Shown piece after piece: positions 58,006-62,249 of a stretch of 64,000 bases of DNA. The DNA is taken from the NCBI RefSeq assembly GCF_988243305.1, contig NZ_OZ547136.1; one strand, written 5' to 3'. Under the pieces are notes generated by a model. The model saw nothing but the letters and a program-made list of their open reading frames with translations. It was not told the DNA's origin and searched no databases. The first letter of the stretch is position 1. Each line of letters begins with the position of its first letter. A program made the translations under genes and the position numbers.

Positions 58006-58583
58006 TGGAGCACCTCAAAAACACCATCATACACTAAATCAGTAAGTTGGCAGCATCACCTGCAGTTTCTGCAGGTCAACGTCTGACCATCATTGTCATC
58101 ACTCTGGCCATTAGAGTAACCTTCTGCATTCATCCTTTTGTAAAAAGTTTATATCAGTATCAGCAATTAACCGGACCTGATACTGATATGAGTCTTACCG
58201 CATATACGGTTAATTTCAGCAATTAATTACATTATCCACGCCAAAGTATTTGTCATCACAATGATGGTACCTTCTTTCAGACACCATTTTTTCAACTCCG
58301 TTTTCCACGGACCGCACTCTTATGTCAAGAGTGCGGTCCGTGGATACAACCAGAGACCGACTGACACGAGTCAGAGGAAACGACGGATATGTTCAGTCGT
58401 AAAATATCTATCAAAAAACATGATTAAGGTCAAAAATGTTTGATATTTACAATTTATGAAGATGACAATAATTATAGACACATGAGAACATAAATGAAAA
58501 TAATTATCATTACAGCAATCTGAATCGCCACGGGTTTAACAGACACCTCAGAGTCATTTAAGATGGCTTAAAGAGAGGTGCCC

Positions 58584-58871
58584 ATGAGCGGTAAGCGTTA
58601 TCCCGAAGAGTTTAAAACTGAAGCAGTCAAACAGGTTGTTGATCGCGGTTATTCTGTTGCCAGCGTTGCAACACGTCTCGATATCACCACCCACAGCCTT
58701 TATGCCTGGATAAAGAAGTACGGTCCGGATTCTTCCACTAATAAAGAACAGTCAGATGCTCAGGCCGAGATCCGCCGTCTCCAGAAAGAGCTGAAACGGG
58801 TTACCGACGAACGGGACATATTAAAAAAAGCCGCGCTCTTGATGTCAGACTCCCTGAACAGTTCTCGATAA
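58584..58871 (+). CDS. IS3-family transposase OrfA (HTH / leucine zipper)
   Basis: [19 protein letters not shown]...[20 protein letters not shown]; run of seven A then G at 58823-58830 is the expected -1 frameshift window into orfB. Confidence 0.85.
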
Positions 58872-59258
58872 TCGGGAAACTCAGGGCGCGTTATCCTGTG
58901 GCCACTCTCTGCCATGTGTTCGGGGTCCATCGCAGCAGCTACAAATACTGGAAAAACCGTCCTGAAAAGCCAGACGGCAGACGGGCTGTATTACGCAGCC
59001 AGGTACTTGAACTACATGGCATCAGCCACGGCTCTGCCGGAGCAAGAAGCATCGCCACAATGGCAACCCAGAGAGACTACCAGATGGGGCGCTGGCTTGC
59101 TGGCAGACTCATGAAAGAGCTGGGGCTGGTCAGCTGTCAGCAGCCGACTTACCGGTATAAACGTGGTGGTCATGAACATGTTGCTATCCCTAACTACCTT
59201 GAACGGCAGTTCGCCGTGACCGAGCCAAATCAGGTGTGGTGCGGTGATGTGACCTATA
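58829..59258 (+). CDS. IS3-family transposase OrfB, 5' part (upstream of the intron)
   Basis: -1 frame relative to orfA; reads ...[22 protein letters not shown] up to the intron 5' splice site. Confidence 0.75.
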
Positions 59259-61528
59259 GTGTGCCCGGAGTTCAGGGCGGGCATGGATGCTTAAATGAAC
59301 CGCGAGTCTGTCTGGAATATTGAACCGGTAACTCACGATGAGAAACCCAACAATCCCACCGGGTGTGACGGTGGAGAACCTGAGCGGCAGTGACCTGCGG
59401 CATGCCCGCAGGGTGATGTAACCCGCTGACAACGGGGATTGAGGCGAGATCACTAAGCCGAGATGATCCTCAAGGTTAAGTACTGAAAGGCTGAAGAACA
59501 TGAACCCGTTAATCCGCCTCTGTGGGTTGAAAACGTCACCACGGCCTACGTGATCTGACAGGCCGTGCAGGAGGAACTGGCAGTGATACGTAAGCACTGC
59601 CGGTCGAAGGTGTTTTGACATGTATGCGAAACACCGGGGCAGCAGCGTCTATCACGCTTGCGTTGCTGACTTCTGCCAACTTGCGGCAAGCAAGGATAAA
59701 GAGTGCGACGGGCAGCCTCCTCAGTATGCCTGAGTCCAGGCAGGTAAACCGGGGAAGGTCAGCGACGGATGTTAAGGGGGCATGGCTCCGATGACGCGCT
59801 GGCTGGCGGAGCTTCCGTAGTAGTCCGCGATGGGGAAAGCCCATTACATGGCGAAGGGAAGCAGTTTGAATGTGTTTGCGACGTGAATTAACTGACCTAA
59901 CGAGGTGAAGACCTTTGATAATCAGCGAAATGCAACGCAAGCTTGCCACATGGGCAGTCACCGATCCGTCCCTACGGATTCAACGGCTGCTGCGTCTGAT
60001 AACACAACCAGAATGGCTGGCTGAAGCGGCGCAGATCACGCTTTCATCAAAGGGGGCCCATACCCCCGGCGTTGATGGCGTGAACAAAACAATGCTACAG
60101 GCCAGACTAGCTGTTGAGCTGCAAATCCTCAGGGATGAATTACTCTCAGGCCACTACCAGCCCTTGCCCGCCAGACGGGTTTACATCCCTAAAAGCAACG
60201 GCAAACTGCGACCACTGGGTATCCCCGCGTTGCGGGATCGTATTGTTCAGCGGGCCATGCTGATGGCGATGGAGCCGATATGGGAGAGTGATTTTCATAC
60301 GCTCTCATATGGCTTCCGGCCTGAGCGCAGTGTCCACCACGCTATCCGCACGGTGAAATTACAGCTCACAGACTGTGGTGAAACCCGGGGACGCTGGGTG
60401 ATTGAAGGCGACCTGTCCAGTTACTTCGACACCGTACATCATCGACTGCTGATGAAGGCTGTACGCCGCAGGATCAGTGACGCACGTTTCATGACTCTGC
60501 TGTGGAAAACCATCAAGGCGGGACATATCGATGTCGGTCTCTTTCGGGCGGCCAGTGAAGGTGTGCCACAGGGCGGTGTTATATCGCCGCTATTATCGAA
60601 CATCATGCTGAATGAGTTCGATCAATACCTGCATGAGCGCTACCTGAGCGGGAAAGCCAGAAAAGATCGGTGGTACTGGAATAACAGTATCCAACGGGGC
60701 CGAAGTACGGCGGTCAGAGAAAACTGGCAGTGGAAACCCGCGGTGGCGTACTGCCGCTATGCCGATGATTTTGTCCTCATCGTCAAAGGCACCAAAGCAC
60801 AGGCGGAAGCCATCAGGGAGGAGTGTCGGGGTGTGCTCGAAGGCAGTCTGAAACTCAGGCTGAACATGGATAAGACTAAAATCACCCATGTTAATGACGG
60901 CTTTATCTTTCTGGGGCACAGGATCATTCGCAAACGCAGTCGTTATGGCGAGATGCGAGTGGTCTCAACGATCCCGCAGGAGAAAGCCAGAAACTTCGCC
61001 GCATCGCTGACAGCACTGTTATCAGGCAACTACAGTGAAAGCAAAGTCGATATGGCTGAACAACTCAACCGAAAACTGAAAGGCTGGGCCATGTTCTATC
61101 AGTTCGTTGATTTTAAGGCCAAAGTCTTCAGTTATATCGACCGTGTCGTGTTCTGGAAGCTGGCTCACTGGCTGGCCCGCAAATACCGTACAGGTATCGC
61201 TTCCCTGATGAGGTGGTGGTGTAAATCACCGAAACCGGGTCAGAGCAAAACGTGGGTTTTATTTGGTAAAACCAATCACGGCAAGCTCAGCGGCGAAATA
61301 CTGTACCGGTTGGTGGGGCAAGGCAAGAAGCTGTTCCGCTGGCGGCTACCCGAAGGTAATCCCTATCTGAGGACGGAGACCAGAAACACGTATACATCGC
61401 GCTTTACAGAAGTGGCAATGGCGTTCGCCAGCATTTAAATGGAGAGCCGGATGCGCTGAAAGGTGCACGTCCGGTTCGGGGAGGAGAGGCAGGGAAATAG
61501 TCCGACTACGCCCTGCCTCTTACTCTAC
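59259..61528 (+). mobile_element. group II intron (about 2.27 kb) with intron-encoded protein
   Basis: Starts GTGTG (GUGYG consensus); near the 3' end a domain V-like hairpin gagccggatgcgctgaaaggtgcacgtccggttc and a domain VI-like helix ending ...ctac; removing it joins GDVTY to [15 protein letters not shown] in frame. Confidence 0.8.
59915..61438 (+). CDS. group II intron reverse transcriptase / maturase
   Basis: 507-aa ORF inside the intron; RT motifs (KLRPLGIPALRDRIVQ, YADDFVLIV) and C-terminal maturase-like region. Confidence 0.85.
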   Translation: MIISEMQRKLATWAVTDPSLRIQRLLRLITQPEWLAEAAQITLSSKGAHTPGVDGVNKTMLQARLAVELQILRDELLSGHYQPLPARRVYIPKSNGKLRPLGIPALRDRIVQRAMLMAMEPIWESDFHTLSYGFRPERSVHHAIRTVKLQLTDCGETRGRWVIEGDLSSYFDTVHHRLLMKAVRRRISDARFMTLLWKTIKAGHIDVGLFRAASEGVPQGGVISPLLSNIMLNEFDQYLHERYLSGKARKDRWYWNNSIQRGRSTAVRENWQWKPAVAYCRYADDFVLIVKGTKAQAEAIREECRGVLEGSLKLRLNMDKTKITHVNDGFIFLGHRIIRKRSRYGEMRVVSTIPQEKARNFAASLTALLSGNYSESKVDMAEQLNRKLKGWAMFYQFVDFKAKVFSYIDRVVFWKLAHWLARKYRTGIASLMRWWCKSPKPGQSKTWVLFGKTNHGKLSGEILYRLVGQGKKLFRWRLPEGNPYLRTETRNTYTSRFTEVAMAFASI

Positions 61529-61986
61529 TCTGGACGGGTAAGCGCTGGGCGTACCTCGCCGTTGTTCTCGACCTGTTCGCAAGAAAACCAGTGGGCTGGG
61601 CCATGTCGTTCTCGCCGGACAGCAGGCTTACCATGAAAGCACTGGAAATGGCATGGGAAACCCGTGGTAAGCCCGTCGGGGTGATGTTCCACAGCGATCA
61701 AGGCAGTCATTATACGAGCAGGCAGTTCCGGCAGTTACTGTGGAGATACCGGATCAGGCAGAGTATGAGTCGGCGTGGAAACTGCTGGGATAACAGCCCA
61801 ATGGAGCGCTTCTTCAGGAGTCTGAAGAACGAATGGGTGCCGGCGACGGGCTATGTAAGCTTCAGCGATGCAGCTCACGCAATAACGGACTATATCGTTG
61901 GATATTACAGCGCACTAAGACCGCACGAATATAATGGTGGGTTACCACCAAACGAATCGGAAAATCGATACTGGAAAAAACTCTAA
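61529..61986 (+). CDS. IS3-family transposase OrfB, 3' part (downstream of the intron)
   Basis: Continues the DDE integrase core ([27 protein letters not shown]...[10 protein letters not shown]...[12 protein letters not shown]). Confidence 0.75.
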
Positions 61987-62249
61987 CTCGGTGGCCAGTT
62001 TTTGTTGACCACTTCACATCGCCATCCGCAAGGTAACTGTAGAAGTGTCTTAAGAGAGTGCATTGCGTTGCCCATAACTTAAAACAGCTTAGATCCTTGT
62101 TCGCCAGAAAGTTTCATCCATTTTCTTCCACCCAGGTTGCGGAAGAACCACTTTTCATCCGTCGTTGACAGATGTGAAGTATGCGGGAGAAAAAGTGAAT
62201 ATCTAACTGTAATAACTCAGACCGGTACGAGTACTCGGAACGTCTACAA

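Follow-up and report, generated by a model that had tools for sequence, protein, structure and literature searches.

The 64,000-nucleotide (nt) stretch of contig NZ_OZ547136.1 (NCBI RefSeq assembly GCF_988243305.1) analysed here, hereafter the window, is chromosomal and carries a nested mobile element, in which a group II intron interrupts the transposase gene orfB of an insertion sequence (IS) of the IS3 family. The insert is almost certainly a full-length and apparently intact copy of the intron E.c.I4, located at its usual homing site and in sense orientation within the orfB of a mosaic IS3-family element. Feature coordinates are collected in Table 1.

Identity of the intron

Alignment with E.c.I4-2b of Escherichia coli E24377A provided the identity of the intron. 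The name and coordinates of this copy (NC_009801, 4848623-4850893) were taken from the supplement of Leclercq & Cordaux 2012 (PMC3522654). The two introns are identical at 2266 of 2270 nt (99.8%), and so are the 30 nt that flank them on each side. Because there are only four differences in 2270 nt and the flanks are the same, we assign the insert to E.c.I4. Both copies are 2270 nt long, occupy the same insertion point in an IS3-family orfB (...GTGACCTATA, intron, TCTGGACGGG), and encode the same protein apart from one residue (R35Q), while one of the four differing nucleotides (A60033) is private to the window. The host elements differ more: exon 1 of E24377A is only 94% identical, and its matches to the IS of the window run from nt 295 onwards, indicating a different left part. 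Under the naming rule for group II introns, sequences that are more than 95% identical share one name (quoted in PMC3552965); the value reported here exceeds this threshold in a comparison with the named copy E.c.I4-2b.

The homing site described for E.c.I4 is a specific position in the transposase genes of the IS3-like elements IS629, IS911, ISEc16, and ISEc31 (PMC3522654). Group II introns residing in IS elements of E. coli had been mentioned in the initial annotation as an already known class, which is correct, as E.c.I4 has been published at this same target. Which intron was present had been left as a question, and E.c.I4 is the answer to it.

Restoration of the transposase gene

The split of orfB had been placed after ...QVWCGDVTY, with 2270 bp inserted. 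Our analysis agrees, as exon 1 ends at 59258 and the coding sequence restarts at 61529, leaving an insert from 59259 to 61528. Removal of this insert creates the exon-exon junction ACCTATATCTGG, in which ACCTATA is followed in frame by TCTGGACGG, the same sequence as in an E. coli ATCC 8739 copy of this IS that lacks the interruption. Over 90 nt, the joined junction agrees perfectly (100% identity) with intronless genes that carry the annotation 'IS3-like element IS911 family transposase'; 2830 of 5426 complete E. coli genomes contain at least 80% of these 90 nt. The exact restoration of the frame that had been proposed is thus corroborated by genes that lack the interruption. The spliced OrfB obtained 314 bits against the IS3 transposase profile NF033516, the cut-off of which is 160 bits. 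Upstream, the -1 frame leading from the A7 run of orfA into orfB is open and free of stop codons, in agreement with the frameshift window suggested for OrfA. By analogy with other members of the IS3 family, OrfAB would be produced through frameshifting at this run.

The limits of the nested element were defined by independent copies. Similarity to copies at other loci (E. coli ATCC 8739, the ISX remnant of K-12, and Tenebrionibacter) begins exactly at 58521, and similarity to the ISEc52 copy of E. coli Nissle 1917 stops exactly at 62016. A second copy of the IS element was not found in the window.

Ribozyme motifs and RNA structure

The ends of the insert are those of a group II intron. It starts with GUGUG and terminates in CUAC at 61528 (CTAC in DNA), which fits the AY 3' end of these introns. 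Immediately before this end, positions 61442-61528 matched the Rfam model of group II intron domains V and VI (RF00029) with 64.9 bits (E = 2.4e-11; gathering score 40), and this was the sole match to the model in the whole window. The fold of 61440-61528 was considerably more stable than shuffled sequences (z = -5.5) and contained a single bulged A, at 61522. In a Salmonella relative that is 85% identical, the upper helix of domain V displays a compensatory change from C-G to U-A. The domain V/VI pattern, the open reading frame (ORF) and the precise split of orfB are not products of chance. The folded 3' part thus contains domain V in its canonical form, followed by a domain VI carrying a bulged A, in line with the domain V- and VI-like structures that had been noticed at the end of a 2270-bp insert starting with GTGTG.

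A segment of about 60 nt located just upstream of the ORF (intron nt 549-613, positions 59807-59871) displayed 81-93% identity to plasmid sequences of the Bacillus group, Clostridium, Enterococcus, and Sinorhizobium. It probably belongs to the strongly conserved core around domain III that distant group II introns have in common.

The intron-encoded protein

The insert had been described as encoding a 507-amino acid (aa) reverse transcriptase/maturase with a YADD motif, and the intron-encoded protein (IEP) supports this description. Its ORF is open from 59915 to 61438 and stops 5 nt before domain V. The start is ambiguous: a TTG at 59915, preceded by GAGGTG 7 nt upstream, yields 507 aa, while the ATG at 59930 used in the NCBI annotation yields 502 aa. 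Pfam matches were obtained to RVT_1 (2.2e-34) and GIIM (1.3e-10) and to no other domain, so an HNH endonuclease domain was not found by this search. The NCBIfam profile for group II intron reverse transcriptases/maturases (TIGR04416) matched with 340.8 bits, above its cut-off of 300 bits. Among solved structures, the closest to the IEP is LtrA of the Ll.LtrB intron (5g2x, E = 6.7e-53).

The lack of an HNH match agrees with the literature, where E.c.I4 and S.f.I1 were assigned to IEP class A, which is among the classes lacking an endonuclease domain (Toro & Martinez-Abarca, PMC3552965); the phylogenetic placement is that of the cited paper.

Target recognition

In all contexts compared, the insertion point falls at the same codon position, after the D-x-T-Y motif, which includes the first catalytic Asp of the DDE transposase. 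In the window, the intron lies directly after the TAT codon of the W-x-x-D-x-T-Y motif, and in the transposases of IS629-type and other IS3 elements the same intron occupies the homologous codon. The conservation of the D-x-T-Y motif would explain how one intron is able to colonise several members of the IS3 family. Occupied and empty homing sites coexist in several IS types.

The last 7 nt of the 5' exon, ACCUAUA, would constitute intron-binding site 1 (IBS1), for which UGUGGGU at intron nt 263-269 is a candidate exon-binding site 1 (EBS1). It is the only full 7-nt pairing match to ACCUAUA in the first 700 nt of the intron. The candidate also pairs at 7/7 positions with ACUUACG, the IS629-type exon next to which the identical intron occurs on plasmids, at 7/7 with the exon ACUUAUA of a Klebsiella relative (91% identical), and at 6/7 with the exon of the Salmonella relative. 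Its richness in G and U accounts for the ability to pair with several exons, and the candidate stands weakly above chance. For EBS2, the segment GAGAUCA (intron nt 188-194) was considered and rejected, as it fits the IS629-type exon only.

State of the copy and proposed mechanism

All best database matches to the insert score 4189 bits, while a perfect match was computed at approximately 4195 bits; hence, each of them differs from the window at one position. This position is 60033, where the window has A and all other copies compared have G. The A60033 allele occurred in no record among the 5426 complete genomes. It changes residue 35 of the IEP (counted from ATG) from Arg, as in the near-universal protein WP_001189123.1, to Gln, and it might have arisen recently by mutation or might be an error of sequencing. 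Gln is also the aligned residue of LtrA, so the change is not obviously damaging and is probably harmless. Judged from its sequence, the copy is young, with a single mutation separating it from the common allele; its other checkable features are canonical. We consider it fairly likely that the copy is splicing-competent.

Following established group II intron biology, we propose the following cycle. The IS transcript would carry the intron, and the IEP would be translated from this precursor, bind the intron RNA, and act as a maturase. It would promote lariat splicing, in which the 2'-OH of the branch-point A61522 attacks the 5' splice site. Ligation of the exons would then allow production of the OrfAB transposase by -1 frameshifting at the A7 run. 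Meanwhile, the excised RNA-protein lariat particle would find intronless IS copies through RNA-DNA pairing, possibly by means of the candidate EBS1/IBS1 interaction, and reverse-splice into them. Since the IEP has no endonuclease domain, priming at the replication fork would be needed, with the nascent strand serving as primer for complementary DNA synthesis, as in RmInt1 and in endonuclease-deficient Ll.LtrB.

RmInt1 of Sinorhizobium meliloti, a class D intron, likewise has an IEP without an endonuclease domain, and it homes naturally to a site within an insertion sequence. This intron serves as the working model of endonuclease-independent, replication-fork-primed retrohoming. RmInt1 and E.c.I4 belong to different IEP classes and reside in different IS families. 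The mechanism is transferred here by analogy. At the DNA level, the matches of the intron to rhizobial plasmids are limited to short conserved stretches.

Several observations weigh against an intact and active copy. The private change at 60033 is non-synonymous. The only sites found that could drive transcription of the IS are consensus promoter-like ones, namely hexamers in the left inverted repeat (IRL) at 58536-58564 and in the AT-rich flank. About 0.7 full 7-nt pairing matches to ACCUAUA would be expected by chance, according to our estimate; moreover, the candidate is mutated in a truncated Superficieibacter copy, and its pairing at exon position -1 is lost in a truncated Yersinia copy. 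A search for EBS2 against exon positions -8 to -20 in four exon contexts yielded no segment that pairs consistently, and EBS3/delta was not found either. When Rfam was searched at a permissive E-value over 59200-60000 for the group II domains D1-D4, only chance-level matches were obtained (such as a CRISPR repeat and a snoRNA). The D1-D4 models of Rfam do not cover the RNA class of E.c.I4. The minimum-free-energy fold of intron nt 1-650 was one giant closed structure, uninformative for the assignment of domains. The literature searched yielded no splicing or mobility data for E.c.I4. Regarding the host element, the termini TG...CA are present and its terminal repeats match poorly beyond TGAA, which is expected if the two ends derive from different elements. 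Its flanks show no target-site duplication (ATC versus CAT), arguing for recombination or mosaic formation after insertion, not against membership in the IS3 family. Considering the missing duplication and the poorly matched repeats, the host IS may be immobile.

Some of these observations lend credit to the idea, which we regard as rather unlikely, that the copy looks intact and is functionally dead or silent, neither splicing nor moving: a passenger that became fixed together with a decayed prophage and an IS remnant next to cobU, and that is either untranscribed or crippled by R35Q. The absence of R35Q from all best database copies and the mismatched, duplication-less ends of the host IS would fit such a history, and so would the degraded state of the mobile-DNA region, where an IS1 lies immediately upstream and the homologous locus of JE86-ST05 contains pseudogenes. 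Many genomes also keep a single E.c.I4 copy despite free homing sites (PMC3522654). On the other hand, the IEP ORF is open, all checkable ribozyme motifs are canonical, and the residue in question is the one found at the equivalent position of the highly active LtrA. Furthermore, a copy one nucleotide away from a widespread allele has had no time for decay. We favour a splicing-competent E.c.I4 copy.

That the insert is a different reverse transcriptase element with no more than a resemblance to group II introns (for instance a retron, a defence-associated reverse transcriptase, or a diversity-generating retroelement) is refuted. The reverse transcriptase domain does match NCBIfam retron and Drt families below threshold, which is expected for any reverse transcriptase, but these matches fall 150-350 bits or more below the respective cut-offs, while the group II profile TIGR04416 passes its own. 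The GIIM maturase domain, the RF00029 domains V and VI, the GUGUG...AC ends, and the precise in-frame restoration of the exons also speak against it. Two outcomes had been named that would overturn the initial annotation: a match of the insert to a different element type, which was not found, and a fold devoid of group II structure, whereas folding showed this structure to be present. An assembly or chance artefact as the origin of the split orfB is refuted as well: no point was found in its favour, and the same IS and intron arrangement with the same flanks is present in the independent complete genomes of JE86-ST05 (same locus), E24377A, and K-12 (truncated).

Mosaic structure of the host element

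The host had been called an IS911-like element, a description that applies to most of its length only. Nucleotides 295-1226 of the joined IS are 99.3% identical to the Nissle 1917 element named ISEc52 by NCBI, and nt 311-738 are 98.7% identical to a fragment annotated as IS911A-1 in K-12. For the left 294 bp, the label does not hold: nt 1-294 gave no blastn match to Nissle ISEc52 or to the left part of K-12 IS911A, and the 200 nt compared from 58521 to 58720 are 98.5% identical to a K-12 remnant annotated as 'ISX'/insX. At least 80% of this left segment (58521-58814) occurs in 1261 genomes. The switch between the ISX-type and IS911-type parts lies just upstream of the A7 frameshift window. From these alignments, the host is a mosaic IS3-family element with an ISX-type left end and an IS911/ISEc52-type body and right end.

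This mosaic is not confined to the window. Intronless full-length copies (97% identity) are present in 11 E. coli genomes. Tenebrionibacter intestinalis carries the same IS left end at the distance from the intron 5' end that is expected for the same exon 1. An origin as a one-off chimera was set aside, given the left end shared with Tenebrionibacter and the intronless copies in E. coli.

A different type of mixture was observed on the E. coli plasmid NZ_CP124504.1 (1442-3831 of the fetched stretch), where the exon on the 5' side of the intron is of IS911 type and that on the 3' side of IS629 type. It is a chimeric IS joined through the intron, as would be expected from recombination between intron copies residing in different IS elements.

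Distribution and relatives of the intron

E.c.I4 at its published target is already known and is an ordinary element that is present in more than one third of complete E. coli genomes. Its occurrence in IS3-family transposase genes was described in 2002, according to the citation of Dai & Zimmerly in PMC3522654. By megablast, the insert was matched in 3206 E. coli records, 2720 of which hold a copy with at least 99% identity. The matches fell on chromosomes as well as plasmids, with 5494 places in 2668 genomes. Of the 5426 complete E. coli genomes, 1873 contain at least 80% of the intron, as do 1519 plasmid records. We count the number of records at or above 99% identity, together with the occurrence on chromosomes and plasmids, as support for recent spread. 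The database copies are always annotated as ltrA between fragments of IS3-family transposases. Outside this species, an exact-match scan with the first 28 nt of the intron, covering one genome per species, detected five stretches in three species (Kluyvera, Superficieibacter, and Tenebrionibacter).

More distant relatives were found on plasmids. The one on the K. pneumoniae IncN plasmid pCAVP50-55 (1801-4070 of the fetched stretch) is 91% identical, and the one on the Salmonella Infantis plasmid pESI-CTX-M-1 (1796-4037 of the fetched stretch) is 85% identical; both are full-length and collinear with the window intron and share its 3' end. They occupy the homologous codon (D-I-T-Y, intron, I) of other IS3-family transposases, and their domains V and VI are conserved. 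They differ from the window copy in their nucleotide sequence (9-15% divergence) and in their host IS elements. The Salmonella copy starts with GUAUA, and no open frame results when its flanking exons are joined. For S.f.I1 of Shigella flexneri, the literature gives 99% identity between its IEP and that of E.c.I4 and places both in class A, without an endonuclease domain (PMC3552965). Class A has been described in the literature as having 'three almost identical members'; the existence of full-length relatives with 91% and 85% identity makes it visibly broader.

The Ll.LtrB intron of Lactococcus lactis and its protein LtrA resemble E.c.I4 in the overall logic of splicing and retrohoming. LtrA has 599 aa and includes DNA-binding and endonuclease domains, the RNA and IEP classes are not the same, and Ll.LtrB interrupts a relaxase gene and not an IS.

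A remnant of the intron in E. coli K-12

The CP4-6 remnant of K-12 MG1655 that comprises IS911A-1, eyeA, and ykfC (NC_000913.3, 271763-273954) is 98.7% identical, without gaps, to window positions 58831-61022. It displays an IS911-type exon 1 that ends at the same base and is followed by the same intron. In contrast to the window copy, the K-12 copy extends only to intron nt 1764, where IS5A truncates it, and its IS911 is additionally split by IS30 and retains the genuine IS911 left end. The K-12 annotation lists a small RNA gene, eyeA (b4690), and a 'PF00078 domain-containing protein', ykfC (b0258), and no intron. The comparison demonstrates that ykfC is the intron reverse transcriptase cut off by IS5A, and that eyeA is identical to a stretch of intron domain I (intron nt 390-464).

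EyeA is a 75-nt RNA listed as an 'uncharacterized sRNA' in an Hfq CLASH preprint (10.1101/481986), and the patchy phylogenetic distribution of eyeA has been read as secondary loss (PMC3318445). The stretch of the window equivalent to eyeA folded no more stably than shuffled sequence (z = -0.44). In the literature checked that mentions eyeA, no connection to an intron was found. We present the link as a side observation and as the only mildly new point of this analysis. That EyeA is a functional trans-acting RNA, and not a stable decay fragment, seems very improbable to us. If it were functional in this way, every E.c.I4 copy, the one in the window included, would supply a regulatory RNA, and the patchy distribution of eyeA would reflect intron mobility rather than secondary loss.

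Genomic context

The window contains serU, a tRNA-Ser(CGA) gene, and four identical tRNA-Asn(GTT) genes within 7387-52672; the latter are located at 8468, 48365 (- strand), 50189, and 52597. The yersiniabactin High Pathogenicity Island, with its integrase and ybt/irp genes, extends from approximately 8.9 to 47 kb and adjoins the first tRNA-Asn gene. The window also contains cobUST and ldtA, after which comes a degraded patch of mobile DNA that includes the intron-bearing IS. The complete IS1 in this patch seems to be missing in JE86-ST05, whose locus is identical in other respects. Downstream of the nested element, 62250-63986 (- strand) encodes two zinc-ribbon proteins and an 'inovirus Gp2 family protein'; one of the two zinc-ribbon genes is frameshifted in the homologous JE86-ST05 locus. 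These genes seem to be left over from a cryptic element of the P4 or CP4 type.

Table 1. Features of the intron-bearing IS3-family element and the adjacent IS1, in window positions
Feature	Position	Strand	Basis
Complete IS1, 768 bp, with perfect 9-bp target duplication TGCAGTTTC	57293-58060	-	460 bp upstream of the intron-bearing IS
Whole nested element: IS3-family IS (1226 bp without the intron) carrying the intron	58521-62016	+	Ends set by independent copies elsewhere
Left mosaic segment: IRL and N-terminal three quarters of orfA, of K-12 'ISX'/insX type, not IS911	58521-58814	+	blastn
orfA, 95 aa	58584-58871	+	NCBIfam NF033516 (IS3 transposase), N-terminal part, E = 1e-17
A7 slippery run, putative -1 programmed frameshift from orfA into orfB	58823-58829	+	Read from the sequence
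orfB exon 1, IS911/ISEc52-type, ending in WCGDVTY with the first Asp of the DDE triad	58830-59258	+	99.3% to ISEc52, 98.7% to K-12 IS911A-1
Putative IBS1 ACCUAUA, last 7 nt of the 5' exon	59252-59258	+	Pairs with candidate EBS1
Group II intron E.c.I4, full length, 2270 nt	59259-61528	+	Four differences from E.c.I4-2b of E24377A, same flanks
5' splice-site consensus GUGUG (GUGYG)	59259-59263	+	Read from the sequence
Candidate EBS1 UGUGGGU	59521-59527	+	Pairing with IBS1
Intron domain I stretch identical to K-12 eyeA	59648-59722	+	Sequence comparison
IEP: reverse transcriptase and maturase (X) domains, without endonuclease domain	59915-61438	+	Pfam, NCBIfam, ORF list
Private substitution A (G in all other copies compared), giving R35Q	60033	+	Alignment
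YADD catalytic motif of the reverse transcriptase	60758-60769	+	Read from the translation
Domain V, 34 nt, with AGC triad, GAAA tetraloop, and 2-nt bulge	61444-61477	+	Rfam RF00029 and centroid fold
Domain VI with bulged branch-point A at 61522 (7 nt from the 3' splice site)	61480-61526	+	RF00029 and fold
orfB exon 2, from IWTGKRW to the stop, with the second Asp (HSDQGSHY) and the Glu (NSPMERFF) of the DDE triad	61529-61986	+	Translation
IS right end, right inverted repeat of IS911/ISEc52 type (...GGCCAGTTTTTGTTGACCACTTCA)	61987-62016	+	100% identical to the end of the Nissle ISEc52 copy

Implications

These findings have implications for the annotation of E. coli genomes. In K-12, ykfC and eyeA are pieces of the same intron, which is useful for their annotation. 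The host element in the window would be annotated as a mosaic IS instead of plain IS911. In RefSeq, the two pseudogene calls of 'frameshifted/incomplete IS3 transposase' that surround ltrA represent one gene interrupted by an intron, which splicing could restore. Finally, modules of intron plus IS of approximately 3.5 kb constitute long repeats that can drive recombination and create chimeric IS elements, such as the one on NZ_CP124504.1.

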